Shown piece by piece: positions 4,128-44,399 of a stretch of DNA of 64,000 nucleotides. The position numbers were made by a program, and so were the translations under genes. Position 1 is the stretch's first letter. The number at the start of each line of letters is the position of its first letter. Origin of the DNA: a virus (Duplodnaviria; Caudoviricetes); the IMG/VR virus record IMGVR_UViG_2663763407_000006, positions 12,440-76,439 of that record, one strand, 5' to 3'. The notes under the pieces were generated by a model. That model was not told the DNA's origin. It saw only the letters and a list, made by a program, of their open reading frames with translations, and made no database searches.

Positions 4128-5357
4128 TTATTTACTCCCTTTGGCGGCCGGTGCTTCTTCTGTGGTTTCCGGGGGAGTTTCAGTAGCGGTTTCCACTGTG
4201 GCATCCTCCGGGTTCGACGCCACTTTCACCGCTGCCATGATCGCCGCAGCCAGGCCGTCATAGTTCGGGGCTTCCGATACCATCAATGCGGCCGCAGCCG
4301 GGGACGAGGTGCTGTCTTTTTTCGCCGGTAAGATTTCGATGTTTTCCACCAGACAGCCACAGGTGTAATCTTCCACGACATAATCCTGTTTAATGGACTC
4401 GTAGTTTTCGATGCGGTCACGCTTGGCGTTCTCATCGATATGGCGGCGGTGCGAGTCTTCCAGCCAGTAAATAGACAGGTTATCGAGGCGGGTTATCATG
4501 AATGCGTTAGCCGGGAAGAAAGGCACACGGATAGCCGGTAAATTGCCGATACGTTTCTGGCTAATAATCAAGTCAGCGGCGAGGGTTTCGCTGTTTTCCT
4601 GCTCTTTGTTGACGATGGGGAAATATTTATCCTGCATCAACTGGCGGCCAGTGATAACCACCAGTTCAGGGTCTTCCTGATGCCATTCAGCAATCATGTT
4701 ATTGGTGGCATCCATCACCAGCGCATCCAGATTGACGTAATCACCGCCATGGCCCACACGGATTTTTTCTGACACAACCGCACCATCTTCACCGATGATG
4801 TTACTCATTACGCGGGTTGGCGCATTGGTGCGGTATTTTTGTAACCAGCCCGGCGCGATATCCTGCAACAGCGGGTTGAGTGCGCGGTTAGAGGTTTTGG
4901 CGCGGTGAGTGCCATTGAAGCCTGCCATGATGCGGTCAAGTGCCTGCCGCTTGATAATGGCGTCGCGCAAACGGGTCTGGAAGTCCTGATAGCGCGCCCA
5001 CAGGTCAAGGGTGTTATAGCGAATATGGAAATCGTAGTTCACCTGCTCACAGAAATACTTCTCACTGTCTAGTGAGGCAAACTCGGCAGTTTCGCGTTCG
5101 TCGCCACCGTCAGTATCGGTGGTGCTGGCAACCGAGCCATTGACACCAAGACCGACCTTTTCGGCGGTCAACTCCGATACCGGCACAATATTGATGCGGC
5201 TCAGAAATTCTGAGGACTCTTGCACGCGGGTCATGATGGTTTGCGTAACAGAGGGTTCGACGCTGAATTTTTTATTCAGGTCGCCTGTTTCTACCCCGTT
5301 CAGCTCGGCTTGACGGGTTAGATAGGCATTAAATTTAAAACGGGTTGCTGGGCGCAT
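4128..5357 (-). CDS. N: Major capsid protein gpN (C-terminally extended)
   Basis: FSVEPSVTQ, ALDRIMAGFNG, NPLLQD, LDNLSIYW motifs. Confidence 0.95.
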   Translation of the reverse strand: MRPATRFKFNAYLTRQAELNGVETGDLNKKFSVEPSVTQTIMTRVQESSEFLSRINIVPVSELTAEKVGLGVNGSVASTTDTDGGDERETAEFASLDSEKYFCEQVNYDFHIRYNTLDLWARYQDFQTRLRDAIIKRQALDRIMAGFNGTHRAKTSNRALNPLLQDIAPGWLQKYRTNAPTRVMSNIIGEDGAVVSEKIRVGHGGDYVNLDALVMDATNNMIAEWHQEDPELVVITGRQLMQDKYFPIVNKEQENSETLAADLIISQKRIGNLPAIRVPFFPANAFMITRLDNLSIYWLEDSHRRHIDENAKRDRIENYESIKQDYVVEDYTCGCLVENIEILPAKKDSTSSPAAAALMVSEAPNYDGLAAAIMAAVKVASNPEDATVETATETPPETTEEAPAAKGSK

Positions 5358-11512: not shown

Positions 11513-13798
11513 TTAATCATCGAATTCCGGCCAGTCGAACAAGGCCGGATATTGAATAACTGTGTCGTTAAACGTCATTGAAGCCCCACGCGCTAACGAT
11601 TCCAGCTCCCAACGTTGGGCGCTGATATCTTTCAACAGTAAATCGTTGCGGATTTGGGGGATGCGCTGGCGTTCTTCGCGGGTTAAACGGGCGGATGGCG
11701 CAATAAGTCGGCCCTTGGTGGGGTCATAACTGCGTTGCATCTTGCTTATCGTTGGCTGTTTCTCTTTAACGCGGGCCACAATCGCCCTCACGGCGGCAGT
11801 GTCCGACCAGTCAATAACGGCGTCCGGTGGGTATTCCATCGCCGCCACAGGCGTTTTATCCTGCCCGTTGGGGTCATTTGGCGCTTGGGTGTTTCCACCT
11901 AACCCACAGTTATTGACAGAACTCCGAGGCGCGCCAGAGGCGCTTTTCAAAGTCAAAAGCTCAACGTCAACGGCACCAGCAACGATGCGCCATTGGGTTG
12001 TGCGGGTTTCATGAATATGGTCAGCGCCCAAGTGAGGCGCATAGATACCGACGACTTTCTGCACTTCTTCATCGTAGGCGTTGAGTTCATCGGCGACGCG
12101 CTTGGCTAACCGGACGGTCTGATTGCCGCAATTGGTGCCACCTTGCGCCATGATGTAGGCAGCAAAATCACCCTCATCAGCCGCATGGCGCACAGCTTCC
12201 ACGGTTTCGTCGAAAGTCTCGGCCAGACTAATAGAACGGATACGGCGACACTCGCGATAGACTCCCATGGAGGGAAGCCCAATCGGGCGAAACTGAGGGA
12301 TGCGCCACGTTGCCGCCCACGCCGTCACCGCCGCAGCGGAATCGGTTAGCAGCTCACCGGTTTCATGGTCACGTTCACCCTCAAGTGCATAGCCGTCGAT
12401 ATTCTTGGCAATGTATTTAGCGATGTAGCCAGCGGCTCCGCCTTTGTTCATGTGCTTACACTCAAAGCGATATTTAGCGGCACCGCGCTCGTCACCATCT
12501 TCTTTCAACGCATAGCGGCGCATGATGTCGATTACCTGCTGGCGCTGGCGGCGTTGGCAAAACAGCATCATGTGCCAGTGCGGCGTACCGTCATGGTGTG
12601 GCTCAACTACGCGCATTCCGTAGACACTTAATTCGTTGTCTTTAAAGGCGGTGCGCATCTTGCTCCAAATCTTGCAGAGATAGCGCTGGCCGTCTTTGGG
12701 TGAATAGGCTTCATCATTCCACTTATGATTAAGCTGTACTTTCTCGTTGTCACCTTTCCCAACAACGCGAGTCGGGTGATATTTGGACGGGGTGGTGATG
12801 GTCAGGAACATACCGACGTGCTTTTGCCCGGCAGCATATTTTTCCGTGAAAGCGATGGTGTTCATTAGCTCCATGCGGCGAATTTCTGGATTAGAAATAC
12901 TCGCCATCACCTTATCAATCAGGTCGATGCGCTCACCGGTTTCAATATTTTCTAACTGGCAGCTTTTGAGATATTCCAAATTAGACTGGCGACGGGCGAA
13001 CACTTCGCGGATAGCCTGCTTACTGGCATAAGAAGATGCTGAAATATCCCGGCTAACATTACCGACAGCAATCAATAACGCTTCCCGCCAGCGGGTTCGC
13101 TGTGCTTTGAGTTTGCGCTCCCACCATTCAGGATTAACCAGACGTGATAGGCTGGCGATAGCAGAGGTGATATCTAACCGGCCTTTCAGGTATTTGCGCC
13201 AGTGCATCGGCGTGATATTAAAAGCGCGCGCCATTCTGGCAAGACCACCGAATATGCGTACCTGTGTATCAGCCTGCAATAAAACGGCCCTGTCACCCTG
13301 ATTAGCCTTAATGCATTCATCACAATGATGGTTGTACGCCACCATTAGCTCATCACCGATTTTGCGGGCAAAGCGGCGCAGCTCTTTATCATGCATACCC
13401 GCTAAGCTGGCATAGGTTGGGGCATCAGTGGAAAAGCTCATTGATGCACTGAGGCGCATAACATTTTTGCTATTGACCACCTGAATACGCGGCCAGATAC
13501 GCTGGTCAAAGACAAACACCAGCCATTTATTAGCATCGTTTAGCCCTTTATTGGCTAACAGGTATTGATAGCGAGAAATGAACTGGCTACGCAGGAAATG
13601 CGGCAGATTATGGATATTGGCTAAAACGGCTTGCCCCTGAATCAGTTGTTCACGGGTAAGCGGTCTTTGAATGCCGGGCAAGGTTTGGCGCGGTTTGCTG
13701 CCGGGATAGGCATAAGTAGGAACAGCAGCGCCGCTGCCCGGATAAGGCAACGGCGGAGTTGGGGTTATTCGTCCGCGTAGGTTATCAATGCTGGTCAT
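11513..13798 (-). CDS. A: Rolling-circle replication initiator gpA
   Basis: EPHHDGTPHWH (HUH) and YIAKYIAKNIDG tyrosine motif. Confidence 0.96.
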   Translation of the reverse strand: MTSIDNLRGRITPTPPLPYPGSGAAVPTYAYPGSKPRQTLPGIQRPLTREQLIQGQAVLANIHNLPHFLRSQFISRYQYLLANKGLNDANKWLVFVFDQRIWPRIQVVNSKNVMRLSASMSFSTDAPTYASLAGMHDKELRRFARKIGDELMVAYNHHCDECIKANQGDRAVLLQADTQVRIFGGLARMARAFNITPMHWRKYLKGRLDITSAIASLSRLVNPEWWERKLKAQRTRWREALLIAVGNVSRDISASSYASKQAIREVFARRQSNLEYLKSCQLENIETGERIDLIDKVMASISNPEIRRMELMNTIAFTEKYAAGQKHVGMFLTITTPSKYHPTRVVGKGDNEKVQLNHKWNDEAYSPKDGQRYLCKIWSKMRTAFKDNELSVYGMRVVEPHHDGTPHWHMMLFCQRRQRQQVIDIMRRYALKEDGDERGAAKYRFECKHMNKGGAAGYIAKYIAKNIDGYALEGERDHETGELLTDSAAAVTAWAATWRIPQFRPIGLPSMGVYRECRRIRSISLAETFDETVEAVRHAADEGDFAAYIMAQGGTNCGNQTVRLAKRVADELNAYDEEVQKVVGIYAPHLGADHIHETRTTQWRIVAGAVDVELLTLKSASGAPRSSVNNCGLGGNTQAPNDPNGQDKTPVAAMEYPPDAVIDWSDTAAVRAIVARVKEKQPTISKMQRSYDPTKGRLIAPSARLTREERQRIPQIRNDLLLKDISAQRWELESLARGASMTFNDTVIQYPALFDWPEFDD
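11904..11933 (-). other. Replication origin (nick site) inside gene A
   Basis: Minus strand CGCGCCTCGGAGTTCTGTCAATAACTGTGG, nearly identical to P2 ori. Confidence 0.85.
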
Positions 13799-20850: not shown

Positions 20851-21867
20851 TCACTTTTTCTGACCGCCTACCACTGGCACAATTTCTGTTTTCCTATCAT
20901 ATCTTGCTGTTTGGGCTGTATTCTTGTGCCCTGAAATGGCTTGCTTCTCTGCGAGGGTTCCCTCTAAGTCTGATATTCCCTTGGCTTTTAAATCATGAAA
21001 CGTGAAATCAAAGTCCAATTCGGAAAATGTTTTTGCGGCCAATAATTTTGCGTTGCGCCACCGACTATTGAAACCATCTCTTGTGTAGCCATGCCCAGAC
21101 CGCTGATGTAGTACATAAATACTGCTCACACCTGGAGCGATTTCTATTCCATCTGCAATTTTGATGGCCTGCTGTAATCTTTCCGTCCATGCCTTGATCT
21201 GTTTCTTTCCTGTTTTCCCTTGCTGTATAAATACCCCGGCATCTATTAGCTGTGACTTTTTTAAGGCGAGGATGTCTGCTTGCCGAGCGCAACAAAGATA
21301 GGCGAGTTCCATTGCCGCTTTTACAATCGGCGGAGCTACGTTGTAGAGAGCGCTATATTCAGCGTCAGTAATGTATCGTTCCCTGCTAACCTCTTTAAAT
21401 TGCTTAACACCCTTGCATGGGTTGCCTTTTACCATTCCCCTCTCATAACCCCAACGATAAACCCGCGATAGGAAAGTTTTCTCACGGTTTGCCTGTGTTC
21501 TACTGGCAACCCCGCGTCTATCCATATATTTCCTGATATGTTCAGGTTTTATGTTGTCTGGTTCCATTTTCCCGAAAACTGGTAATACTCTAAGTGAATA
21601 TTTGCGGTAGTCTTTCTGCGTCTCAACAGCTAACTCATTAAAATCAACAGAGCGGAAAAACTGTTCAATGAGTTTATTCAAGTTGGCTTTTTCTAATGGC
21701 TCATTATTTATTTTTTCGTAGCATGACCATACTTGAGAAATAGGTGCATCCAATGGGCATAGCGATATTGAGCCACCGCGGGCGGGGTGGAATTCATATT
21801 TCGATTTTCCACGATACACCCGAGGTGGTAATGCCGTGTCTGCGGCGTTCTTGCGTTTACCGGCCAC
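20851..21867 (-). CDS. int: Tyrosine integrase
   Basis: CCARQADIL, FHDLKAK, SGHK, TARY. Confidence 0.93.
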   Translation of the reverse strand: MAGKRKNAADTALPPRVYRGKSKYEFHPARGGSISLCPLDAPISQVWSCYEKINNEPLEKANLNKLIEQFFRSVDFNELAVETQKDYRKYSLRVLPVFGKMEPDNIKPEHIRKYMDRRGVASRTQANREKTFLSRVYRWGYERGMVKGNPCKGVKQFKEVSRERYITDAEYSALYNVAPPIVKAAMELAYLCCARQADILALKKSQLIDAGVFIQQGKTGKKQIKAWTERLQQAIKIADGIEIAPGVSSIYVLHQRSGHGYTRDGFNSRWRNAKLLAAKTFSELDFDFTFHDLKAKGISDLEGTLAEKQAISGHKNTAQTARYDRKTEIVPVVGGQKK

Positions 21868-22093
21868 TGTTCATGGCCTCGAAATTGGGTTCTTCTTTTT
21901 CTGGCTCTAGCGGCTTACCGCGTAAACTGATTGGATTCAAAAAATGGCCCCAAGTGGTTTTCGGGTGTCCGTCTGGGCGTCGGATAAAAAAGATCCCCGA
22001 GCGGCGTAAAGAGTCACATTGTTTGGTTTTGTAGTGATGACCGGTCAACTCAATCATCTCCTCTTTGGTGATTATGTCGTGGTCGTTTTTCAT
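21857..22093 (-). CDS. Excisionase-like (DUF4224)
   Basis: ITKEEMIELTG..QC..L...GIFF..RPDG.P; overlaps int start. Confidence 0.85.
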   Translation of the reverse strand: MKNDHDIITKEEMIELTGHHYKTKQCDSLRRSGIFFIRRPDGHPKTTWGHFLNPISLRGKPLEPEKEEPNFEAMNSGR

Positions 22094-22256
22094 GGTCTTG
22101 CCCCTGTATCATTTGGGTTATTGCTCTGTCGGTAGCAGAACAGGCCCGCTGTATATCGTGGTCGGTGAGTTGTTGTTTCCGTACACTGGCTGATAATTTG
22201 CCGATCTTAATATCTAAGTCGGTTAATAGGCGTTTGCCCGGTTGCCATGGCTGCAT
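22050..22256 (-). CDS. Hypothetical protein
   Basis: 68-aa ORF in left operon with AGGG SD. Confidence 0.65.
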   Translation of the reverse strand: MQPWQPGKRLLTDLDIKIGKLSASVRKQQLTDHDIQRACSATDRAITQMIQGQDHEKRPRHNHQRGDD

Positions 22257-22305
22257 GGTGGTTTCCCTGGTGTTGGATTTCCACCATGCTAGCGGGGCAG
22301 GTTGA

Positions 22306-22488
22306 TTATTTCTGATTATGCAAAATCAATTTTTCGGGTGCTTTCTGCGGTGGGGTGCTGCTAATTCGAACATCTACCGGAAAATCGTAGTGAACATCAC
22401 AACGGCGATCAGTGTGGATGGTGCCTGTTCGTCCATCGGGGAGTGTGATATAGGACTTTTCACCGCGTTTGTGAGTACGCTTTAGCAT
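22306..22488 (-). CDS. Small protein with CsrA-like pattern
   Basis: MLKRTHKRGEKSYI vs CsrA MLILTRRVGETLMI; DFPVDVRI vs NAPKEVSV. Confidence 0.55.
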   Translation of the reverse strand: MLKRTHKRGEKSYITLPDGRTGTIHTDRRCDVHYDFPVDVRISSTPPQKAPEKLILHNQK

Positions 22489-22533
22489 GGGTGTTGCCTC
22501 AGTAATGCCCCGTTGGTTTGGGGCGGGATGAAA

Positions 22534-23034
22534 TTAGCGAACCTGCAGGCTACGGCTACCGATCTCGATATGCGCACCTTTAACATCAACACCATTCTCT
22601 ATGGCTTCCTTAATGGCTTTTTTATCGGGCGCTACGGTGGTTTGCACTGTCACCAATTCACTGGACAATAAGTCTTCATTGTCGATCACCACACTGGCCA
22701 CACCTTTGCGTGCGGTGAATGTGTTATACGGCGTTTTAAGTGTGTTCATATCTGCGGCCAATAAGCAGTTAAGGACGTACTGTTTGATCGATTTGGCCCG
22801 ATTCTCGAATGACCTTTTCCGCTCAGCCAGACGTTTAGCTTCCTCATCACAGGTCTTTGCTTGCCCCTCAAGATTGCGAACAAAGACGTAGGTTGCATCC
22901 AGCTTATCCCCCAGGGCACCCTCTAACCCCTCAAGCGTATCGGCGATCATTTCTGGCGTGAGTTCCTCTGAGGACTCAACCAACTGTTGCAGTTTGAAAA
23001 GGTCTGCGGCTAATGCGATTGCTGTATTGCTCAT
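22534..23034 (-). CDS. Siphovirus Gp157 family protein
   Basis: DTLEGLEG..E.KRL.ERK..PDKKAIKEAI..G..V.GA. Confidence 0.9.
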   Translation of the reverse strand: MSNTAIALAADLFKLQQLVESSEELTPEMIADTLEGLEGALGDKLDATYVFVRNLEGQAKTCDEEAKRLAERKRSFENRAKSIKQYVLNCLLAADMNTLKTPYNTFTARKGVASVVIDNEDLLSSELVTVQTTVAPDKKAIKEAIENGVDVKGAHIEIGSRSLQVR

Positions 23035-25229
23035 AATGTCGGCTCCTGTGCGGTAAGTTCAGCAACCCGTTTTTCAGTTAAGCGGTGTAACGCCAGCAGG
23101 CGGGTTTTGAGGTAATTGGCGTGTTCGTGATCGGCTTTGGCTTCTGCATCTTTGCGGTGTACATCAACTTCACGCGCAATGGTGCTGTAAACCTTGTTCA
23201 CTTCGTTGGTGGTGACGGCGCTCGTAATGGTATTGCCTACTTTGGTTAACTTCTCATCCAGCTCTTTGCGCAGACGAACTGAGTCACCGGCTTTCTCACT
23301 TGCGTTCTTGATAGCAAACTCAGCGGCGTTATCAGTGCGGTATCCGAGATCATCAAAAAGACCGAGGAATACATCAGCAGAGAAACCAAGTTGTGACAGT
23401 GCCTTTTTAGTCGCATCCGTTAGTGATTTTTTGGTGACTTCACTATCACAGGTGAGACCGTTTTTGGTGTTGTAGATATATGGGGTGCAACCATATGCAG
23501 GGATTTCGCCACGCTCACCACGCAGGGTGTAGATTAAGCGTATTTTAATGACATGATTGATCTCAGTTAGATAGCCGCCAGATCCGTTGGGTATGACTTC
23601 TTTTATATAATTTCCATCAGCACCTTTGACTGACCGCATGATCGGTGCACCGTTATCAAAGCGTTCTTCTAAAATCTCCACCCGCCAGTTGATACCTTGT
23701 GGCCCAAGCAATTTTGTTGCTTGCATAACCATATAGGTGCCGTTAATCGACGTGCCACCACCGTTATTTGAGAATGCTTTAGTAAAGCGTTCATCGGTTC
23801 TTTGCACCGAGCGCCACAGATTCATGTTGTCCTGCACATCTTGTGGCTGTGAAGATATATCCTCTTCAATGATGACGGCTCGCTGCTGAAATTCATCAGC
23901 AGTAACATCTACAGTAGGAATAGCGCTTTGCTGCGCCTCTTCAATAACCTCTGTCGGCTTCTCCTCAACTGAGGCATAAACGCTGTAACCCAACTGATCC
24001 AACGTCTCTTTAGCCTGTTGAGCTGCGTTATCAGTGATAGGTTCCAGTTCAGGGTTTTCCTGTTCTGTTTCAACAATTGGCGGTTTTGTTTCAGTTTCTG
24101 GCTCAGAATTGGCAACCAGCGCCAGTTTTGTTTCATTGTTTGCCGCTGGTTGCGGTTCACCACCGGCTAGACCATCAATAGAGAACTTGCCATCACCCAG
24201 ATTGGTTACTGCGGGTTGTGGGTTTTTAACGGCTAAACACTGAGTGATAAATTCCTTTCGTGCTGAGGCATCGGTCAGGAAGATAGGTTGCTTTTTACCC
24301 GCGCGGATCACTTCAAAGATGCTTTCACGTGGAATAGATAACACATTGTTGCGAACGCGAAAATCGGTTGACCATTTACGCCAGGCATCATCATTGTTAT
24401 CCATCAGCTCTTTTGCTTGCTTCATCTCTGCCGACATGACATCCCAGCAGTTAAAATCAGCAGGCAATAAGGCGAGAGCGACTTCGAGATCGAGCGTTTT
24501 ATATGTGTGCTCAAAGCTGCGTTTGATTGGCGCATCAGGAGCCGGCGTGTCAATACGGGCAACTTTTTTAGTACCGGTTAACTCGTCACGATTGCTGGGT
24601 TCATTAACCCATTTTTCAGCAAAGCTACGTACTTCCCTGAATCCAGGTATTTTGGGGAATTTCTTATTTATCGCATCAATAAGATTTTTAATTGACTGCG
24701 GATACATCGCGCCAATTGCAGGAATACATGTGAGCGCCATGTATATCGAACTTATTTCCGGCTCAGCGTCGTCATCATTAATTAAGTCATACACAAGTGA
24801 TAGCTCATGTGAATCAATGTCACGCGCACCGTACAACATTACGCTACCAACTTTAGCTCCAATACCCAGTTTGTTGAAATCAACCGGAGTAGTAGTAGTA
24901 ATGTCCTCACTTACCTCGCCGTTGTCTTCATTACCATCCTCAGGCAACGGTACAGCATTAGGCGTCCATACTTTGCCATCAAAGGTATTATCCTGTGCGA
25001 ACTGCTCATCGAACTCACCAACAACCGGGCGCGGTTGCCCGACAGTATCCTCACAGATTTTCGGATCAGCAAAGTTATCACCGGCAGCGGGGTAGGCTTC
25101 CCATAATTTCCCGATGGCCAGTGCGGATGCCATTTTCTTATTTATGGCTTCCAGAGCTATAACAAGCGGTATAGCCCCATTTTTGAGAGCCGCTTTTTTC
25201 GGCTCGAATAAACAAATAAATACAGTCAT
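23031..25229 (-). CDS. RecE-like N-terminus fused to Rad52/Sak-like annealase
   Basis: HTYKTLDLEVALALLP (RecE-like); TSING.Y..ATKLLGPQG..W and KKSLTDATKKALSQLGFSADVFLG (Rad52-like). Confidence 0.75.
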   Translation of the reverse strand: MTVFICLFEPKKAALKNGAIPLVIALEAINKKMASALAIGKLWEAYPAAGDNFADPKICEDTVGQPRPVVGEFDEQFAQDNTFDGKVWTPNAVPLPEDGNEDNGEVSEDITTTTPVDFNKLGIGAKVGSVMLYGARDIDSHELSLVYDLINDDDAEPEISSIYMALTCIPAIGAMYPQSIKNLIDAINKKFPKIPGFREVRSFAEKWVNEPSNRDELTGTKKVARIDTPAPDAPIKRSFEHTYKTLDLEVALALLPADFNCWDVMSAEMKQAKELMDNNDDAWRKWSTDFRVRNNVLSIPRESIFEVIRAGKKQPIFLTDASARKEFITQCLAVKNPQPAVTNLGDGKFSIDGLAGGEPQPAANNETKLALVANSEPETETKPPIVETEQENPELEPITDNAAQQAKETLDQLGYSVYASVEEKPTEVIEEAQQSAIPTVDVTADEFQQRAVIIEEDISSQPQDVQDNMNLWRSVQRTDERFTKAFSNNGGGTSINGTYMVMQATKLLGPQGINWRVEILEERFDNGAPIMRSVKGADGNYIKEVIPNGSGGYLTEINHVIKIRLIYTLRGERGEIPAYGCTPYIYNTKNGLTCDSEVTKKSLTDATKKALSQLGFSADVFLGLFDDLGYRTDNAAEFAIKNASEKAGDSVRLRKELDEKLTKVGNTITSAVTTNEVNKVYSTIAREVDVHRKDAEAKADHEHANYLKTRLLALHRLTEKRVAELTAQEPTL

Positions 25230-25284
25230 GTTGGTCTTGCCTCTTTGGTTTTTAAACGGATCTTGGTCTTTGATGTATGACTAA

Positions 25285-25620
25285 TTAAAAAGGAATTTCG
25301 GTATCATCAGATACGTTCGATGGAGTGCTGTGCTCGATGCATAGCAACGCCTGAATCTGATCATCAATTAGTGACTGCTTACGATATGACTCAGCCGCAA
25401 TCTGTTCCTTTTTGCTATGGAGTGAATCGACATGCTTGCTGATGATTTCAAAAGGGTCGGGTTCGTCAAAAGGAATCGTAATTTCTCGGGTTTCGAGTAA
25501 AACATGCGCTGGCTCAACCTGTGACATGTCACAGGTGTACACGGTAAAGCGATCATCTTTTGATGTTGAATATGGATTGGTATGGATGTAGAGCTTGGTG
25601 GTTATCTGTAGTGCTGTCAT
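25285..25620 (-). CDS. Hypothetical protein
   Basis: AGGAG SD before ATG 25620; ends with SSB-like acidic tail DDTEIPF. Confidence 0.75.
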   Translation of the reverse strand: MTALQITTKLYIHTNPYSTSKDDRFTVYTCDMSQVEPAHVLLETREITIPFDEPDPFEIISKHVDSLHSKKEQIAAESYRKQSLIDDQIQALLCIEHSTPSNVSDDTEIPF

Positions 25621-25629
25621 AGCAACTCC

Positions 25630-25638
25630 TGATATACT
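25630..25638 (+). promoter_or_regulatory. Extended -10 promoter antisense to left operon
   Basis: TG-A-TATACT; purines 7-8 nt downstream; no good -35. Confidence 0.6.
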
Positions 25639-25644
25639 TATTTT

Positions 25645-25762
25645 AAGATTGATGGCGTAAGCCGTTGGTCTTGCCTCTGTTAACGGGTTGGTCCCCGTTA
25701 GCTTCCCGGTTAACTTTGGTCGGTGACCCGGGGTAAAGAAGCCCACTTCGGTGGGTTTTTTT
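25645..25762 (+). ncRNA. Predicted antisense sRNA targeting early-gene RBSs
   Basis: Promoter, GUAA-capped GU-rich stem, two UUGGUC-loop hairpins, cUUCGg terminator with U7; seed complementary to repeated RBS motif. Confidence 0.7.
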
Positions 25763-25930
25763 ACGTCTGTAATTTGGTGCCCATTACGCCGGGCCAGCGG
25801 GTCAGATCTTCGGTCTTGCCTCACCACACTTTCCCGTCGTGGCTACGTTATTGGTTTGGGCTGCTGCACTGTGGTAATCATGCCGAGCCTTGGCGCGGGG
25901 TTCTCCTCCAATGCAACAACCCAAATTCTG

Positions 25931-26086
25931 TTATTGCCGTACTTTGACTACTTGATAATCACGGCCAGTATTACGTGCGTAATCATCAGCTTCTTTGCGA
26001 GTTGGGTAAGTATTTCCGTTAGCCCACATTCCACAGTAGCGATATTGGATCTGGAATTTACTCGCTTGCTTTTTAGTTGCTTTCAT
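25931..26086 (-). CDS. Small basic hypothetical protein, first gene of left operon
   Basis: GAGGG SD before ATG 26086; 51 aa. Confidence 0.6.
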   Translation of the reverse strand: MKATKKQASKFQIQYRYCGMWANGNTYPTRKEADDYARNTGRDYQVVKVRQ

Positions 26087-26236
26087 AACTTCCCTCTTTT
26101 GCCGTCTTCCCGGCTGCCAGAACGTACTAAACCTAAACTTGCGAATCATCCGGTGTTTCGTATGCCACCGGCAGCTACTTCGTGGGCGTCCTGCCTGTTC
26201 GCATCGGCTACTGTGCCGTGTTGATGAAAACAATTA

Positions 26237-26274
26237 AACACTTTGGTTGTATTTATGTCAACAACTTTGGTTGT
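26237..26274. promoter_or_regulatory. OL operators (two 14-bp ACAA-N6-TTGT-type sites) at pL
   Basis: AACACTTTGGTTGT 26237 and ACAACTTTGGTTGT 26261, matching OR sites; minus-strand TTGACA between them. Confidence 0.8.
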
Positions 26275-26443
26275 ATTTTATGGCGAATTGGTTTTATTTG
26301 TGTTTTCTTAGCTTTAGTTTGGTTATGCTTTTTTGAATTTTTTAGAGGTTAATCAAGTAATGAAGGCTAAATTTAGGTAGGCGTTTATGACGTAGGGATT
26401 CATGTATGCGCCCCTCCAATGAGAAGGGGCAGGAAATGGATTA

Positions 26444-27601
26444 CTATTTTTTCTTGTTTCTGAAATTATCATCGTCCATACAGTAATTGTATGAATCCAA
26501 GATTAGCCCGGATAATCGTAAAATATTTTCAGGGCGATCTATTATAATTTGATTGCCTGGAGCTAGCTCAAGTCCCGCTCGCTCAACTTCTGCAATAGCT
26601 TTTTCATCTAATTCAATTGGTAAGATTATCGATGGTCGCTGTTTACTATCAAAATAGCGTACAACCCAACGGTTTGATTTTCCTTGGCAAAGAATATTGT
26701 AATAACTGGCTGTGTCTTTTGCTGAAATATCAGCCTGTTCACCAAGTAATAGTTGAATATTACTAAAAAATAACCTTTCGTTATGCGTAGTAACTATATT
26801 TGAATTTTCAGGATCCACGACTGACGCAGTTTCATCTATTTTTTTCAGCTCTGGTGCTAGTGCGACTTCAACATCTTTGTCTTTGTTGGAAGCCATTGAT
26901 AGCCCAGAAACTACCATTGCACTAACAGCTCGTTCTACTGCCATTTTTACTAGTGGTGTAATTGTGTCGAGAAACTTTTGGTTCAACTGTCGTTGTACGC
27001 TAGAGCGACTTGCAACATAGCGGACAAAATCAGCATCAACATTCCTTAAACTATCACTGATAACATCAGTAAATGCTGATAAGTATATGCTTTCTTCAGC
27101 TAAGGTTCGAAGTGCTTCTGGTTGGAACTGGTCGTGACGGAATTGATATAGCTGATGAGCATCAGAGTCCGATGCTTCATCTACATCAATCTGTAGGAAT
27201 GGAGAGGCATCCATAATATTTCTTTGCTTAAGGTCGGTAAAGAAACGCCATTGGGTGCCATTAGTTATAGCTGCAATAGTGACCTCAGGTGTCGCGTTAA
27301 AGTATCTAGAAAGCTGAGGGCAATGGTTATCAAGTTTCTGATTATAGCCCTTGGCCTCAATAAACATGACAGGAACACCATGGCAAAATAGGGCATAGTC
27401 GACTCGTTCACCTACTTTAACACCAGGGAAATCAGCGCCATATTCTGCTTTAACTTTCGTTGGGTCATAAGAGTTAAAGCCAAGAATATCTAACATTGGC
27501 AATATTAATGCTTGTTTAGTCGTTTCTTCGGTAGAACAATGATGGCTTACTTTTTTTACGTGATCAGAGTGCGCTCTTAATTTCTCAGCGAATATCTTCA
27601 T
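26444..27601 (-). CDS. HsdR N-terminal-like PD-(D/E)xK nuclease domain protein
   Basis: EETTKQALILP..LG, VDYAL..MFIEAK, QLSRYF, TNGTQWRFFTD. Confidence 0.85.
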   Translation of the reverse strand: MKIFAEKLRAHSDHVKKVSHHCSTEETTKQALILPMLDILGFNSYDPTKVKAEYGADFPGVKVGERVDYALFCHGVPVMFIEAKGYNQKLDNHCPQLSRYFNATPEVTIAAITNGTQWRFFTDLKQRNIMDASPFLQIDVDEASDSDAHQLYQFRHDQFQPEALRTLAEESIYLSAFTDVISDSLRNVDADFVRYVASRSSVQRQLNQKFLDTITPLVKMAVERAVSAMVVSGLSMASNKDKDVEVALAPELKKIDETASVVDPENSNIVTTHNERLFFSNIQLLLGEQADISAKDTASYYNILCQGKSNRWVVRYFDSKQRPSIILPIELDEKAIAEVERAGLELAPGNQIIIDRPENILRLSGLILDSYNYCMDDDNFRNKKK

Positions 27602-27668
27602 ATTTTCCTTTAACTCTTAGGTTGAGTGACACTCCTACCCTCATTGGACTACTTAGAAGTTAGAGCTA

Positions 27669-28382
27669 TCAATAATCCAGAACTGACCACCAAAACACGC
27701 GGCCAATAATTTCTACGGTTTCTCCGTCAGCATCTTCATCTGGGTGCTCGACTTTATTAAAGCTGCGGATACTTAGCTTATTTCCTGGCATACGATATAA
27801 AAGCTTAAGGCGTTTTAATCCGTCTTGATTGATTGCATATATTTTACCATCGATAATTTTTTTATTTGCACAATCAACAGCTACTGTCGTACCGTTTGGT
27901 AGAATCGGCTCCATGCTATTTCCATGGGCTGGAAAGCAAATAACATTCTCTTTCTGAGCACCAACTCGTCGCAAGGTCGATTTCGAAAAGCGAAGTTTAA
28001 AACCATTGTAGTCTTGATCACAAAAGCTACCATCACCGGCAGCAAGTTCAATATCACGTAAGAATGGTACTTCGACCTCGTCTTCGTGAATTGGGCACTG
28101 ACTATCCCAAGGTATAATATTCCCCCATTCATTCTCAGAAGGAATATTTGATTCCTGATTTATTGTTTTAGTCGATTCCTTCATCGGCAAAATCCCTTCT
28201 CCAAGCCATTCCGGGCGTACCTGGAGTGCGCGGGAAATTTCCAGTAGCTTAGTGGTGCTCTGGCTTTTACCGGACGTTATTTTTTGAATAGCAGCTTGTG
28301 AAACTCCAGCCTTCTCAGCTAGCGCAGCCTGAGTTAGCCCAGATTCCTTCATGGCTACTTTCAATCTTTGTGCAAGTGTCAT
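27669..28382 (-). CDS. cI: CI repressor (HTH + S24 autoprotease)
   Basis: HTH, AAG cleavage site, GNSMEP, LKLL, IIGRV. Confidence 0.95.
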   Translation of the reverse strand: MTLAQRLKVAMKESGLTQAALAEKAGVSQAAIQKITSGKSQSTTKLLEISRALQVRPEWLGEGILPMKESTKTINQESNIPSENEWGNIIPWDSQCPIHEDEVEVPFLRDIELAAGDGSFCDQDYNGFKLRFSKSTLRRVGAQKENVICFPAHGNSMEPILPNGTTVAVDCANKKIIDGKIYAINQDGLKRLKLLYRMPGNKLSIRSFNKVEHPDEDADGETVEIIGRVFWWSVLDY

Positions 28383-28399
28383 TCCCATCCTCGCAAAAT

Positions 28400-28490
28400 A
28401 CAACCTTAGTTATACTCGGTCAAATCACTATTGTTGTTGCTTAAAAACAACCTTGGTTGTATATTTGCAGTTAAATACAACAAAGGTGAT
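28400..28490. promoter_or_regulatory. OR operators (434-like ACAA-N6-TTGT)
   Basis: ACAACCTTAGTTAT 28400, ACAACCTTGGTTGT 28447, ACAACAAAGGTGAT 28477. Confidence 0.8.
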
Positions 28491-28494
28491 TGAA

Positions 28495-28761
28495 ATGGAT
28501 AATGTAATTAAGACGGCAATTAAAATTGTTGGCACTCAAAAGAGACTAGCAGAGGCGTGCGGCGTTACTCAGGCGGCCGTTCAAAAATGGTTATGCGGCA
28601 AAGCAAAGGTAGCCCCGAGAAATGTTAAATTTCTCGTTGAAGCTACCAATGGTGAGGTACAAGCGCATCAAGTTCGCCCTGATTTACCAGACTTATTTCC
28701 GCATCCTCATCCGCATCCAGAGCCTGAAGCTAGCCTAACCCAATCCCACTCACAAATCTGA
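28495..28761 (+). CDS. cro: Cro/YdaS-like regulator
   Basis: GTQKRLAEACGVTQAAVQKWL..RPDLPDLF; divergent from cI. Confidence 0.9.
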   Translation: MDNVIKTAIKIVGTQKRLAEACGVTQAAVQKWLCGKAKVAPRNVKFLVEATNGEVQAHQVRPDLPDLFPHPHPHPEPEASLTQSHSQI

Positions 28762-28798
28762 TTATCAATAATCAATTTCCTGCGACAGGAGACGCAAC

Positions 28799-29263
28799 GT
28801 GGAACAAGAAATCAAAGCCCTTAAAGCCGAAGTTCAGGCGTGGGCGGCAGAGCGGGGGCAGGAGCATGTAGCTATCGAGATCAGCAGAATGTTTTTCTTG
28901 CTCAATATCAACACCGGTTCAGTTCGTCTCACTCCCATTGAAAACGGGCAGGGCGGCGCTGATTGGAAGTCTATTAATAACAACCGGCAGCAGTTATTTC
29001 GCTGGCTGCGCGGGGATTCAAAAGCATCAATGCGCAAGGTCTTGGAATTATCACCGGTACTTAAAGCGGCACTCCCGGCAGAACGGCGGGCCAGGGTGAA
29101 TGGCGAGACCGTGAATTATTTGGTTTCGATTGCTAGCCGAGAGTTTGCCGCAGCAATTAGCGCGGTTCTATTAGATGGCTGTGACATGTCACAAAGAATA
29201 TCGGGCGCTGTTGCGGCACTTCACGCAATCAGACCACAACACCAACGGCTGACCACCGTATAA
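28799..29263 (+). CDS. CII-like/YdaT family protein
   Basis: AWAAERGQEHVAIEI..NRQQLFRWL..ALPAERRAR. Confidence 0.8.
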   Translation: MEQEIKALKAEVQAWAAERGQEHVAIEISRMFFLLNINTGSVRLTPIENGQGGADWKSINNNRQQLFRWLRGDSKASMRKVLELSPVLKAALPAERRARVNGETVNYLVSIASREFAAAISAVLLDGCDMSQRISGAVAALHAIRPQHQRLTTV

Positions 29264-29279
29264 AACAGAGGCAAGACCA

Positions 29280-29504
29280 ATGCTTACATCTATCGACAAA
29301 ATCACCTGGCGCAATGGATTCCGGCTTAACGGCCAACCGGCAAGTATGGCTGACATCGCCCCTATTTTTGCCGGGCGTCAGGTAGCCGCCTATAGCGTGT
29401 GGGAGCAGTACGAGCAGAAGAAAGCTGACCTGCGCGGGATGAACCTATCGCCTGACGATTATCAGTCTGCCTGTCGGCAAATAGCCGCAGCGCTGGGGAT
29501 CTGA
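29280..29504 (+). CDS. Hypothetical protein
   Basis: GAGG SD; between cII-like gene and initiator. Confidence 0.75.
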   Translation: MLTSIDKITWRNGFRLNGQPASMADIAPIFAGRQVAAYSVWEQYEQKKADLRGMNLSPDDYQSACRQIAAALGI

Positions 29505-29506
29505 CT

Positions 29507-30481
29507 ATGAGCATGAATCTAATGGCTAAGGCCATGAGTATCAAAGTCGGGAACCCGTTACGTAAATTGGTACTGATAAAATTAGCCGACAATGCCAACG
29601 ATCAGGGCGAGTGCTGGCCATCGGTTCCCTATATTGCTGAACAGTGTGAAATATCCGAACGCTCGGTACAGAATCATATCCAACAACTGGTAAAAAATGG
29701 GCTGGTTAGGATTGAAGAGCGTAAATCTGAAAATGGCTTAAATCGCTCAAATGTTTATCACCTGCGCTTAAATTCCGCTGGTGCAAATGCTGCACCCTAT
29801 GGTGAATCTCCTGCACCCTCTGGTGCAAACGGTGCACCGGTTAGTGGTGCAAATGCTGCACCCAGAACCAGTCACTCTTTTGAATCAGTCATAGATCCCA
29901 ATACACCCCTTACCCCTCAAGGGGGAACTGAAAATATTCTCGCTGACGCTGAAAGGGCGTTGGCGTATTACAACCAACTCACTCACACCCGATGTGAAGA
30001 CCCAGGGCCATTTGAAATCTTGCTGACAACAACCAAATCGCGCAAAGCCTATGCGCTGGTTGATTTGCAGTTGGTGACCCATTGGGTGGTCAGCACATGG
30101 AAACCACGTAACGGCAAGTATGCCAAGCCTGCGAATATCTGCCGCGTGAATCGGTTCGATGGTTATCTGGCCGATGCCCGCGCATGGTCTGAGTCTGCAG
30201 GGCGGATTGATTGCGATGCAGTCATTGCTGCATACAACCGTGTGTTCAGCGATGTTTTGCCACTGGCTGAAATCGATCAAGACCGTAAGCACGCTATCCG
30301 CGAATTACTCCAATACCTCAAAACCAAAGATCTTGAAGCGTTTCAGGGCTATTTCGAGGCGTTCCGCGAACAGGCTCCGGTGTTTTATTTCGGTGGTGAT
30401 GATGGTTCCCACTGGCGCGCCAATTTTGATTATTTGATGAAACCGGACGTGTTGAGAAAAACCCGCGATGGTGCGCTATGA
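29507..30481 (+). CDS. Replication initiator (wHTH)
   Basis: KLVLIKLADNAND.GECWPS..IAEQCEIS; internal iterons. Confidence 0.9.
   Translation: MSMNLMAKAMSIKVGNPLRKLVLIKLADNANDQGECWPSVPYIAEQCEISERSVQNHIQQLVKNGLVRIEERKSENGLNRSNVYHLRLNSAGANAAPYGESPAPSGANGAPVSGANAAPRTSHSFESVIDPNTPLTPQGGTENILADAERALAYYNQLTHTRCEDPGPFEILLTTTKSRKAYALVDLQLVTHWVVSTWKPRNGKYAKPANICRVNRFDGYLADARAWSESAGRIDCDAVIAAYNRVFSDVLPLAEIDQDRKHAIRELLQYLKTKDLEAFQGYFEAFREQAPVFYFGGDDGSHWRANFDYLMKPDVLRKTRDGAL
29780..29862. repeat. Origin iterons, four GGTGCA-N5-TGCACC-type palindromes
   Basis: Copies at 29780, 29801 (variant), 29822, 29846. Confidence 0.85.
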
Positions 30482-31851
30482 AACCTCAAGAGTTAGAAGC
30501 GGCAATTCTATCCGGCCTGCTGTATGGCGGCTCAACCCCTGATGCGTTGGAGGTTATTGCCACACTGCCGGAAGAGGCATTTAGCATCAGGATTTATCGT
30601 TCTGCCTATGCGGAAATTAAAAAGCAGGCACTGACCAAAGGGATGATCGATGTTCTGTTTGTCAGTGAGGCGCTGGGCGGTAGTAGTCTGGCTACGCTAT
30701 CTGAAATTGTCCGTATGCCGGGCAACGTGGCGAACCTGAAAGGCTATGCCGCCCATGCCCGTAAGATTTGGTATAGCCGCACCATGACCGCATTATTTCA
30801 GACCGCGGCTGACGGCATCCGAGGGGCGAACAATCAGGAACAGCGCGATCAGGTGATACAGGGAGCGGTAACACAGCTAATTGATATGACGGCAGATAGC
30901 GGCGGCATTATCCCGGTGCATCTAAATGACTTATTGCCCGGCTATATGGACATGCTGGATAAGCGCATGAATGGTGAAATTGAGTCAATGAACCTGCAAA
31001 GCGGCATTGTCGAGCTGGATGCCATCACCGGTGGCTTTAACCCGCAGGACTTGGTGGTTATCGCCGGGCGTCCGGGGATGGGTAAGACCGAGTTTGCGTT
31101 GAGAATTGTTGAGGGGGCCACACAGAACGGCGGCGGGGCGCTGATATTCAGTATGGAAATGGCTTCCCTACAGATGGTAGAGCGTTCCGTTGCCGGGGTC
31201 GGTAATTTGCCGGTGTCAAAATTGCGTGACCCTAAAACCTTATGTGACGAGGACTGGGCGCGCATTAACTCTGCACTACAGGCATTGAATGGCCGTGATA
31301 TTTGGATTGTTGATGCCAGCGAACTAACCATCGATCAGATACGGGCTATCGCCGAAACACACAAGCGCCGGTACCCGCAATTAAGAATGGTGATGGTTGA
31401 TTATCTTGGCCTGATTACCAAACCCAAGGCGGAGCGTAATGACCTATCAGTCGGCATCATTTCACGCGGCTTAAAAACACTGGCCGGTCGGATAAACACC
31501 CCGATTTTTGCCCTTAGCCAGTTATCCCGAAAAGTGGATGAACGGCCACCGGGTAGCCGTAGGCCAATCAGTTCCGATCTCAGAGACTCCGGTTCAATCG
31601 AGCAGGATGCTGACAGCATCATTATGTTGTATCGAGAGGCGGTTTATAACGCCGATAGTCCGGCGGCCAGATTTGCCGAGGCCATTGTAACCAAAAACCG
31701 ATTTGGTGAGCCCGGCACCGTTTATCAGGAATTTAAAAACGGCCACTTTCTGCCGGTGGATCAACTAGTGGCAAAGGAAGCCAGCCGAATAGCAAAAGAG
31801 GCATCAAGGCCACCGACCAAAGAAAAACACTATTCAACACCTAAATTTTAA
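30478..31851 (+). CDS. DnaB-like replicative helicase
   Basis: GRPGMGKT, FSMEM, VDYLGL, LSQLSR, DLRDSGSIEQDAD. Confidence 0.96.
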   Translation: MKPQELEAAILSGLLYGGSTPDALEVIATLPEEAFSIRIYRSAYAEIKKQALTKGMIDVLFVSEALGGSSLATLSEIVRMPGNVANLKGYAAHARKIWYSRTMTALFQTAADGIRGANNQEQRDQVIQGAVTQLIDMTADSGGIIPVHLNDLLPGYMDMLDKRMNGEIESMNLQSGIVELDAITGGFNPQDLVVIAGRPGMGKTEFALRIVEGATQNGGGALIFSMEMASLQMVERSVAGVGNLPVSKLRDPKTLCDEDWARINSALQALNGRDIWIVDASELTIDQIRAIAETHKRRYPQLRMVMVDYLGLITKPKAERNDLSVGIISRGLKTLAGRINTPIFALSQLSRKVDERPPGSRRPISSDLRDSGSIEQDADSIIMLYREAVYNADSPAARFAEAIVTKNRFGEPGTVYQEFKNGHFLPVDQLVAKEASRIAKEASRPPTKEKHYSTPKF

Positions 31852-31894
31852 CCGCGCCTGACCAGCGTGTGAACTAACCCAAAGAGGCAAGACC

Positions 31895-32317
31895 ATGCAT
31901 ACAATCAATGAATACATCAATGAAAAACGTCCGGTTATTGACGATGGCTGCGACCACGGCCCGGCAATAATAGATCGTATCAATCAAGCAGCTCGCGCTC
32001 GTCTGCGTGTCCCATATGTTCCCGCACCAAAGCTGGATAAGGTGGCTGAACCTGTCATTGAACATGGCGCCATGGTGAAAATCGGTAACCGTATTAGCTA
32101 TGGTCGCCGCGTTATGACCGGCATTTATGAATTACAGCGCCTTGGCCGTTCCCCGCAACGTATTTCAGTCATGCTAAAAATGCCGCTGGATAGAGTTGAG
32201 CACATTCTTAAAGCAGATACCCCGGTAAGACTGGAACTACTCAACAAAGTAAAGGCCGGGCCACTCCCCAGCGAACCCAACATCATGAAACGCCTGGCGG
32301 CTGAGTCGAGGGCGTAA
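31895..32317 (+). CDS. Hypothetical protein (possible HTH)
   Basis: GAGG SD; GRSPQRISVMLKMP..V.HIL. Confidence 0.7.
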   Translation: MHTINEYINEKRPVIDDGCDHGPAIIDRINQAARARLRVPYVPAPKLDKVAEPVIEHGAMVKIGNRISYGRRVMTGIYELQRLGRSPQRISVMLKMPLDRVEHILKADTPVRLELLNKVKAGPLPSEPNIMKRLAAESRA

Positions 32318-32319
32318 CC

Positions 32320-32571
32320 ATGGCCGGGCAATCGGATTATCTCCCACCCGGACTCCCGTACAACATTTGCCTCTGGCCTCAGGAATACCAAGAAAAGCTA
32401 AATCTTGATTTGAGGGCCAGCGGCTTAATCAAAAATCTGTACGAGCGTAGAACCCACCGCGCCCACGTACTGGAAGCGATTGAACGGGTACCGGTGCATT
32501 ATCGGGAGTTTTTTAAACAGCGCTTAAATTACTGGCGTGACCGTAGAGACCACAGAGGTGAGACCAAATGA
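32320..32571 (+). CDS. Hypothetical protein
   Basis: GAGGG SD; ATGA-coupled to next ORF. Confidence 0.7.
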   Translation: MAGQSDYLPPGLPYNICLWPQEYQEKLNLDLRASGLIKNLYERRTHRAHVLEAIERVPVHYREFFKQRLNYWRDRRDHRGETK

Positions 32572-44316: not shown

Positions 44317-44373
44317 GAAACTACGCTTTAACAATTACCGCCAACGGTAAAAAACTGAGTTATCCAAAATCTG

Positions 44374-44399
44374 AGCCTCGCCATCGTGCGGGGCTTTTT
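44374..44399 (+). terminator. Intrinsic terminator
   Basis: AGCCTCGC-catcgt-GCGGGGCT plus Ts. Confidence 0.7.

Follow-up and report, generated by a model that had tools for sequence, protein, structure and literature searches.

A start motif shared by early genes of a lambdoid prophage and its probable recognition by an IsrB-like small RNA

Why do early genes of different function in one prophage begin with the same short sequence, and what reads that sequence? The question arises in a 64,000 nt stretch of viral DNA (Duplodnaviria; Caudoviricetes), positions 12,440 to 76,439 of the IMG/VR record IMGVR_UViG_2663763407_000006. We refer to this whole stretch as the window, and all coordinates are given in it. 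A preliminary description had reported the motif AGAGGCAAGACCA at several early genes of the window, complementary to the seed of a small RNA (sRNA). Judging from the gene map, which we have obtained from PHROG profile searches of the window proteins, the element carrying the motif is a lambdoid prophage. We consider it probable that the sRNA of this prophage pairs with the motif, occludes the ribosome binding sites (RBSs) and silences the genes, the effect being presumably repressive.

We have counted AGAGGCAAGACCA in both strands of the window, allowing up to two mismatches, with 100 shuffles as a control. Seven matches are found, 1.24 being expected, and none of the 100 shuffles reaches this number. 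All seven are in transcript sense and confined to 22093-32566: those at 22093, 25232, 25666 and 25811 are on the - strand, in the leftward early region, those at 29267, 31883 and 32554 on the + strand, in the rightward early region. No further copies are found elsewhere in the window or in the 76.4 kb contig, in agreement with the preliminary description, which had assigned the motif to early genes and to the transcript sense only. In five copies (22093, 25232, 29267, 31883 and 32554) an ATG follows after 0–3 nt. The start-associated copies, including a degenerate one, head three small genes besides xis, the RecE-like exonuclease gene and the gene with which the replication operon begins. The sites are the following:

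22093..22105, - strand: motif AGGGGCAAGACCAtg at the excisionase start (xis 21857-22093, which overlaps int)
22490..22500, - strand: degenerate motif GAGGCAACACC at the start of the 60 aa phrog_2482 gene (22306-22488)
25232..25244, - strand: motif at the start of the 732 aa RecE-like exonuclease gene (23031-25229), with 15 contiguous complementary bases
25666..25678, - strand: copy within the sRNA gene, antisense of the sRNA seed; ACG follows
25811..25823, - strand: second non-start copy, TGAGGCAAGACCG, just past the sRNA terminator, on the leftward transcript
29264..29288, + strand: motif with its flanks, the strongest target, at the start of the 74 aa phrog_2465 gene (29280-29504)
31883..31895, + strand: motif at the start of the 140 aa gene (31895-32317)
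32554..32566, + strand: motif variant AGAGGTGAGACCA, followed by ATG 32568; both changes are wobble-compatible

PHROG profiles align from residue 1 of the xis, exonuclease, phrog_2482 and phrog_2465 products, so these motif-bearing open reading frames (ORFs) begin at real starts. The xis product, for example, is aligned with the phrog_1266 excisionase over residues 1-75. The exonuclease stop overlaps the gam start (ATGA), and the phrog_2465 gene heads the O-like and DnaB-like replication genes; these three genes abut or overlap. Genes of excision, recombination and replication, named as targets in the preliminary description, are also those behind the motif in the PHROG map. In relatives, the phrog_2482 orthologue has TGAGGCAAGACCAatg at its start, with a GACCAA-loop hairpin ahead of it, the 31883-type motif position precedes a different gene, and the ORF from ATG 32568, which has 39 aa in the window, has 168 aa. 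The copies at 25666-25678 and 25811-25823 are away from gene starts: the first was absent from the preliminary description and the second had been counted among the start sites. The copy at 25666-25678 lies 45 nt upstream of ATG 25620 and in frame with it.

The motif is made up of a Shine-Dalgarno (SD) sequence, GAGG, and a fixed spacer of 7–8 nt, CAAGACC(A), up to the ATG: The spacer, rather than the SD, is its unusual part. Free variation at positions 1 and 13 reduces the conserved core to the 11-mer GAGGCAAGACC, which falls into at least four sequence classes among relatives. We have found no phage paper with the motif among the ten listed, of 228 in which the string occurs; all ten are eukaryotic or cell-biology studies, mostly on GPX4 or ferroptosis.

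The complementary sequence belongs to a predicted sRNA gene on the opposite strand to the leftward genes, with the following parts:

25630..25638, + strand: extended -10 element TGaTATACT of the sRNA, overlapping the complement of the RBS of the leftward gene which starts at 25620
25645..25766, + strand: predicted IsrB-like sRNA, about 120 nt, from the isrB covariance match, fold and alignment
25645-25672, + strand: hairpin SL1, followed by a single-stranded GCCUCU linker
25665..25678, + strand: seed (anti-motif) TTGGTCTTGCCTCT, 14 nt, invariant in 24 of the 24 aligned sRNA genes, with differing flanks
25679-25702, + strand: hairpin SL2, loop UUGGUC
25705-25732, + strand: hairpin SL3, loop UUUGGUCGG
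25735-25762 plus U tract, + strand: sRNA terminator

The Rfam family isrB (RF01386) matches 25675-25761 (+) over model positions 1-87 with 35.0 bits. Apart from isrB, only weak rsmX, CRISPR-DR33 and tmRNA matches are found here, all below their cut-offs. The fold has a z of -5.5. We have gathered 27 distinct homologues of the sRNA from viral contigs, 24 of which have been aligned: RNAalifold predicts 38 pairs, ten of them with compensatory changes, and the four hairpins have covariation support. The same four hairpins are formed by all sRNA variants folded. The 5' half of the seed is the 3' arm of SL1, and its 3' half, GCCUCU (anti-Shine-Dalgarno), is single-stranded. The 5' arm of SL1 varies only in ways which preserve pairing, and many of its pairs are G·U, valid only in RNA from the + strand. 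The loops of SL2 and SL3 both read UUGGUC. A -10 hexamer (TATACT, TAAAAT or TATAAT) is found 21–26 nt upstream of TTGGTC in 23/23 distinct folded sequences. A predicted promoter of its own with a conserved -10 element, an intrinsic terminator and a conserved structure are what is expected of a trans-acting, RBS-occluding sRNA, and all of them are found here. It is presumably transcribed in lysogens, by homology to IsrB, which has been detected in Salmonella lysogens. The element is unannotated: in public records, matches of the sRNA locus are labelled "hypothetical protein".

All counts of complementary bases given in the preliminary description were reproduced: 17/17 at 29264-80, where pairing also extends beyond these contiguous bases, 15/15 at 25230-44, 13/13 at 31883-95 and 14/15 at 22093-107, where the single change, A to G, gives a G·U pair. 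Both changes at 32552-67 and the one at 25810-22 are wobble pairs, and 22490-500 has one true mismatch.

Comparison with relatives provides the most informative evidence. We have fetched 80 loci (79 of them unique) through alignment of the RecE-like protein, which was used as bait so that the choice of loci did not depend on the motif. The exonuclease start and the copy in the sRNA gene are both GAGGAAAGACC in 38/80 loci, both GAGGCAAGACC in 14/80 and both GAGGCAAAACC in 1/80; in 9/80 the exonuclease start has GAGGAATGACC and the sRNA-gene copy GAGGTATGACC. As for the other 18 loci, nine differ only at positions 1, 10 or 11, and nine more (L405 and eight undetected) are misses of the pattern search. 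A looser pattern classified all but seven of the 79 loci, as follows:

Class C1: 16 loci, 64 copies of their own class, 0 of another class
Class C2: 46 loci, 227 copies of their own class, 0 of another class
Class C3: 9 loci, 35 copies of their own class plus 9 exonuclease-variant copies, 0 of another class
Class C4: 1 locus, 5 copies of its own class, 0 of another class

There is not a single cross-class copy in the 72 classified loci. Differences between classes are true mismatches (C/A, A/T, G/A). A further case is G054, a 4.8 Mb genome located by an isrB search of 151 genomes. Its sRNA seed is UUGGUCUUUCCUC, and it contains five exact copies of GAGGAAAGACCA, all within 6 kb around the sRNA, and no canonical 12-mer: three copies are at gene starts in both operons, one is in the sRNA gene and one just past it. 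In L230 the sRNA has a C to U change; the second copy and one gene start carry A at this position, and the other starts pair by G·U. Within classes, family-level substitutions at core positions 2–12 keep wobble pairing in 11/18 cases, about 35% being expected from transition bias. The preliminary description had argued for RNA–RNA recognition from changes of this kind: The argument points in the right direction and is weak by itself. It is the covariation of seed and targets, a check which had been proposed there, that makes RNA–RNA recognition the best supported alternative, with no cross-class copies in 72 loci and the variant in five of five copies in G054.

A survey of start contexts covered 217 unique ones, from 76 related loci. 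If the sRNA gene is left out, there are 91 exact copies; behind 87 of them an ATG is found (offset -2 to +4), which in 82 cases opens a frame of at least 35 codons. The sequences upstream of the copies are mutually unrelated, and the genes behind them form 27 protein clusters, which include the exonuclease, two excisionase families, phrog_2482, phrog_2465, a regulator and a Ref/HNH-like protein; in one Providencia prophage a Q-like antiterminator bears the motif. In five whole bacterial genomes, all 24 exact copies are found in one prophage segment of 5–23 kb per genome. The sRNA signature is present in 11 of 12 motif-rich records, and the twelfth has a seed variant. Each of the seven unclassified loci has, on inspection, an sRNA-gene copy with a variant at position 1 or in the SD, so no relative has the targets without an sRNA copy: both are found together in 79/79 loci, 12/12 records and 5/5 whole genomes. 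Two observations which would have told against the preliminary description, a motif frequent away from start codons and targets kept where the sRNA locus is lacking, are therefore not what the relatives present. A seed variant, AAGGCAAGACC, is found in L421.

We have also searched for the sRNA itself. A viral scan with a 14-mer from SL3 gave 116 loci, 14 of them real and the rest mostly chance matches; a genome scan gave 51 matches, about 28 of which are real, judged by eye from the sequences. The genera in which the signature is present are Providencia, Proteus, Morganella, Xenorhabdus, Photorhabdus, Yersinia and Rouxiella, with about 28 species genomes in all, to which one contig with the label Martelella is added; a class C2 sRNA is matched by a few E. 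coli genomes. Proviruses with the anti-motif sRNA have 5–9 motif copies each (6/6; up to two mismatches), against 0–3 for a control pattern. In proviruses with a Salmonella-type IsrB lacking the anti-motif, the motif is found at background level only (4/4 records, one of them a 5 kb fragment).

Some related sequences lie outside these classes. Seven loci in six genomes (L330, L331, L333, L335, L336, L338 and L339) have a further IsrB-like type, whose 5' region begins with GATAGCGCCCATTGGG (GGTAG... in L333), with no start motif near it within the 3 kb loci; L332 is IsrB-like with a more divergent 5' region, and no motif is found nearby. The GenBank phages labelled Stenotrophomonas BUCT708 and BUCT709 are 71% identical to a class C2 sRNA region, and Pectobacterium phage ZF40 has an 83% match to the 3' domain of the sRNA.

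Binding energies distinguish strong and weak targets. Net binding was obtained by cofolding with the whole sRNA, the cost of opening SL1 included, and 218 ORF starts were ranked. We have adopted this measure because the duplex energy of the 30 nt seed region mixes 13 nt sites with GC-rich chance matches: by duplex energy 29264 is the sole clear outlier (-41.3 kcal/mol), and the 13 nt sites range from -27 to -30. In net binding, the phrog_2465 start is the first of the 218 (-26.7 kcal/mol), the exonuclease start the second (-18.0), xis the fourth (-15.1) and the start of the 31895 gene the fifth (-15.0). The weaker sites are the 32568 ORF (-9.9 kcal/mol) and phrog_2482 (-8.2).

The loops of the sRNA also have their counterpart. 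No other 5-mer is as common as GACCA, the loop complement, in the 45 nt which precede motif-bearing starts: It is found in 22/64 gene families, its complement in none of the 64, and of 25 boxes 18 are placed between -25 and -16. We have used these box statistics and set hairpins aside, since the upstream hairpins are weak in single-sequence folds. GACCA is not a general feature of the window, with 54 and 58 copies per strand and no enrichment; it is enriched solely upstream of motif-bearing starts. GACCA boxes are found ahead of four targets in the window, among them:

29232-36 and 29251-55: upstream of the phrog_2465 gene
31860-64: ahead of the 140 aa gene
32548-52: ahead of the ORF at ATG 32568

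We can now propose how the system would work. The motif is a start-associated sequence and marks the first cistron of delayed-early modules (excision, recombination, replication and some small genes). The sRNA, transcribed from its own promoter and antisense within the leftward early operon, would cover the SD, the spacer and the start codon by pairing and so keep the 30S subunit from binding; its UUGGUC loops match the GACCA boxes found some 20 nt ahead of one target in three. Translational coupling within the strings which the targets head (xis-int, recE-gam, phrog_2465-O-DnaB) would extend the silencing to whole modules. The leftward transcript would relieve this effect at induction, by convergent transcription or interference and by titration: It could titrate the sRNA because it is fully complementary to it and carries extra non-start copies. 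The copy at 25811-25823 may be such a decoy or sponge site. Its placement recurs in relatives, and in G054 and L230 the class-specific variant is found there.

A number of points weigh against the pairing model. Half of the seed is locked in the stable SL1 hairpin, at a cost in binding energy. The weaker sites, with -8 to -10 kcal/mol, are near the background of ORF starts (-3.9 ± 3.1), and a start without the motif, that of the ORF at 4498, reaches -17.6 kcal/mol. In the nine loci of class C3 the exonuclease site has a true mismatch with the seed, A against A. The bias towards wobble within classes is only moderate. Only the -10 element places the 5' end of the sRNA, and the promoter, which has no -35 element, was for this reason missing from the output of the generic promoter scan. 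The isrB score is exactly at the gathering score of 35, the gathering-mode run did not list the match, and the scores of relatives straddle the cut-off (40.9 bits in G023, 31.1 in G054). Finally, the covariation alone fits either the sRNA as reader or another reader with an sRNA gene that overlaps one copy. It shows that all copies have a common reader, not that this reader is the sRNA: the copy in the sRNA gene is itself a member of the motif set, so covariation cannot single out the sRNA.

The alternative which survives best retains the pairing and changes its purpose: the sRNA would act mainly on incoming phages of the same class, across repressor immunity types. We regard this superinfection exclusion as somewhat doubtful. 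True mismatches between classes and mostly wobble changes within them form the pattern expected of specificity groups, and there is a precedent in STnc6030 of the Salmonella prophage BTP1, described as a prophage antisense RNA which excludes its own phage type (Owen et al. 2020, PMC7067206). On the other hand, one mismatch in a duplex of 11–17 bp may fall short of full orthogonality, and the non-start copies on the phage's own leftward transcript suggest self-regulation.

A second alternative, which we consider unlikely, is that the motif has another reader: an RNA-binding protein, encoded by phage or host, or the ribosome itself, to which it would signal a special kind of initiation. The sRNA would then be merely cis-antisense and its complementarity a by-product. 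In fact, the sRNA gene always overlaps a leftward-strand copy of the motif, behind which an ATG is frequent: in relatives, this copy is followed by an ATG with a short ORF (<35 codons) in 22 contexts, by no ATG in eight and by a long frame in three, the short ORFs having 4–10 codons in the examples read by eye. In Salmonella, IsrB overlaps the 5' end of a flanking gene and was reported as cis-antisense in PMC2330248. The combination of GACCA hairpin and motif could also be a protein site. Nevertheless, the sRNA-gene copy keeps its class sequence in the window, in L253 and in G054, where no start codon follows, so its constraint there is not translational. SL1 covaries around an invariant seed through G·U pairs which are valid on the sRNA strand only, and we have seen no other class-specific reader. 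The 16S rRNA has no complement to the non-SD part of the motif: Extended pairing was tried in two hosts carrying the system and rejected, the longest complement being 6 nt, which was equalled in 1800 and 1832 of 2000 shuffles.

A protein candidate for this role would be the small phrog_2482 product, with five predicted beta strands, conserved in these phages and itself encoded by a motif-bearing gene. The preliminary description had called the 60 aa product of 22306-22488 CsrA-like, a label which finds no support from Pfam, PDB profile search, Foldseek or VIA-align; neither CsrA nor any other RNA-binding match was found. Pfam gives no match at E ≤0.01, the PDB profile search gives Bap repeats and no CsrA, and Foldseek gives no match at E ≤0.001, the best VIA-align Z being 3.6. 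The monomer model has five beta strands, with a pLDDT of 75. CsrA is an intertwined dimer, so its absence from these match lists is not decisive. The family is conserved (56–63 aa), with the motif always at its own start.

The weakest alternative, a recombination linker, would make of the motif a shared gene-start boundary for module swapping by the phage recombinase, kept uniform by gene conversion and with no regulatory role; we find this very improbable, in spite of different genes behind the same motif at the same map position (31883 in the window, 15643 in G002, 32552 in G004), the 27 protein clusters that bear it, the homogeneity of each genome for one class and the RecE-like exonuclease which these phages encode, since the same 11–13 nt persist in Yersinia, Rouxiella, Proteus, Providencia, Morganella, Xenorhabdus and Photorhabdus prophages with unrelated flanks, which indicates purifying selection and not homogenisation within the genome, the strict distance of 0–3 nt to the ATG and the embedded SD fit translation, and the structured sRNA, UUGGUC loops, GACCA boxes and non-start copies are left unexplained. 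A linker is in any case compatible with a regulatory role, the two not being mutually exclusive.

Regulation by pairing is thus the explanation which we prefer, and it may be extended, quite tentatively, to a wider picture. The motif and anti-motif pairs would add to immunity specificity a second layer, one made of RNA, in a large family of lambdoid prophages of Enterobacterales. One sRNA would be a master key, silencing the first cistron of each delayed-early module (excision, recombination, replication and, in some phages, the Q antiterminator), both in its own prophage and in any phage of its class that arrives; compensatory change would have produced at least four orthogonal classes; at induction, the non-start copies in the leftward leader and the antisense of the sRNA would act as a sponge and give a threshold switch; and an unnoticed complementary RNA might explain the start-associated sequences of cluster K mycobacteriophages. 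The consequences are of some interest. IsrB prophage sRNAs, known since 2008 with no targets in the literature searched, would gain a testable function and a defined regulon. Start-associated sequences are not peculiar to mycobacteriophages, and a concrete mechanism is offered for them: A shared RBS "address" read by one phage RNA. In the natural specificity classes, compensatory mutants are already at hand for experiments. These classes also point to immunity groups at the level of RNA, which could shape the coexistence or exclusion of prophages in Yersinia, Proteus, Providencia, Morganella, Xenorhabdus and Photorhabdus.

The genes around these sites, in order, are:

Leftward genes: int, xis, two small genes, Mu Gam-like gene, 732 aa RecE-like exonuclease gene, phrog_2479, a 310 bp gap, 51 aa ORF, endonuclease gene, CI
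Rightward genes: Cro-like, CII-like, phrog_2465, O-like, DnaB-like, 140 aa, theta-like, 39 aa ORF

The RecE-like exonuclease (23031-25229, -) is best conserved across relatives in its C-terminal third, with invariant columns clustered after residue 470. A mechanical frame of 180 codons, 25285-25827 (-), starts from GTG 25827, reads through the entire sRNA gene in antisense and continues in phase into the 25620 gene; we favour the short form of this gene (111 aa), as the PHROG profile aligns from its residue 1. Three relatives (L359, L361 and L395) have two motif-like non-start copies and shorter GGGAAAGACC repeats beside the sRNA gene, on the leftward strand. Copies and repeats lie 420–1210 nt upstream of the exonuclease start and upstream of the sRNA terminator, with GACCAGC boxes interspersed; they may be decoys.

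Other elements are found in the window. The leader of the leftward operon contains, at 26139-26202, 62–64 nt of non-coding sequence which are 85–95% identical to unannotated intergenic DNA of phages ST64B, SfII, 118970_sal3, YeP1-3, phiNP and others, with no Rfam match. Contigs of a relative (possibly DNA) lack exactly 26140-26202, a clean 63 nt indel. Of two raw RNA runs with the same species label, one has four reads, all on 26141-26200 and in a different context, and the other has none; these runs speak neither for nor against expression of the sRNA, and no RNA data set was listed for 25300-26300. The 62–64 nt are possibly a mobile leader RNA element, which might have to do with antitermination. 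The sequence ACTTTGGTTGTATTT, about 15 nt, is present as two direct repeats at 26230-26290, in the interval that separates the leftward leader from the CI-side endonuclease gene; it looks like an operator. The Rfam family isrJ (RF01393), an sRNA family common to Gifsy-1, matches 44331-44397 (+) with 54.7 bits, above its gathering score.

Among known systems, the immunity RNAs c4 of P1/P7 and CI of P4 pair through short segments with repeated sites in early transcripts, including the RBS, and keep lytic or anti-repressor functions off. Both are processed from the transcript which they control, and their targets are in one operon. Here, in contrast, the sRNA has a predicted promoter of its own on the opposite strand, and its sites head many genes in both divergent early operons. 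The cis-antisense RNAs OOP of lambda and sas of P22, both mentioned in PMC7067206, are also short phage RNAs which control translation or stability of early mRNA by pairing; each acts on one target, which it overlaps, and is not known to have a trans regulon. STnc6030 of BTP1 resembles our case in that a prophage RNA interferes with phages sharing its target, and how the prophage escapes at its own induction is open there too; it is antisense to a single late-gene region, and no start motif of several genes and no specificity classes are part of that account (PMC7067206).

IsrB is the nearest relative of the sRNA. IsrB-1 and IsrB-2, of the Salmonella prophages Gifsy-2 and Gifsy-1, were detected by northern blot and primer extension and have 88 and 94 nt, according to Padalon-Brauch et al. 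2008 (PMC2330248), and IsrB-1 appeared to be expressed from Gifsy-2 in strain 4/74 in PMC7067206. They have the same place and orientation, lying in antisense where the recE/sbcA side meets the next leftward gene (<- -> <-), as far as PMC2330248 describes them; the 3' domain is homologous (SL3 loop CUUUGGUCGG and terminator, 35 bits), and the -10 element abuts the start of the leftward gene. On the other hand, the Salmonella 5' domain has no anti-motif and its prophages have no motif, and the predicted length here is about 120 nt, not the 88 or 94 nt published. In three Gifsy-like records, start-associated complements of the Salmonella-type 5' region were looked for and rejected: only scattered 9-mers are found, none at gene starts. 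We have found no published target or function of IsrB in the literature searched. Score and location thus agree with isrB membership, the 5' domain and the length do not: Since the 5' domain (SL1 and anti-motif) and the length differ, we consider the sRNA as a distinct isrB subfamily which shares the 3' domain.

The closest analogue of the motif is, by its descriptive features, the start-associated sequence (SAS) of cluster K mycobacteriophages. Its consensus, GGGATAGGAGCCC, is a 13 nt asymmetric sequence with an SD core, located a few nt upstream of mostly ATG starts (Pope et al. 2011, PMC3203893). As in our case, that account gives one orientation, location in the non-structural half of the genome, varied gene families and conservation across relatives. 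Exact copies are absent from the host chromosome there; here they are confined to a prophage segment in five genomes. In both systems some of the copies are preceded by a further element, which is the ESAS there and a GACCA box or hairpin here. The authors of PMC3203893 judged ESAS to be DNA-protein sites and describe one reverse-oriented non-start copy in K1 phages. The sequence, hosts and phages are unrelated, the copies per genome are 11–19 there and about 5–9 here, and no complementary RNA is known there from the sources cited. The function of the SAS was still called unverified in 2025 (PMC12699233). The parallel drawn in the preliminary description therefore stands as an analogy and not as membership: the descriptive features of an SAS are present, and AGAGGCAAGACCA does not fit GGGATAGGAGCCC within two deviations. 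Prophage RNAs which pair with early transcripts are known; the probable regulon of several operons addressed through one invariant start motif, with classes which co-vary, is a new form of this theme.

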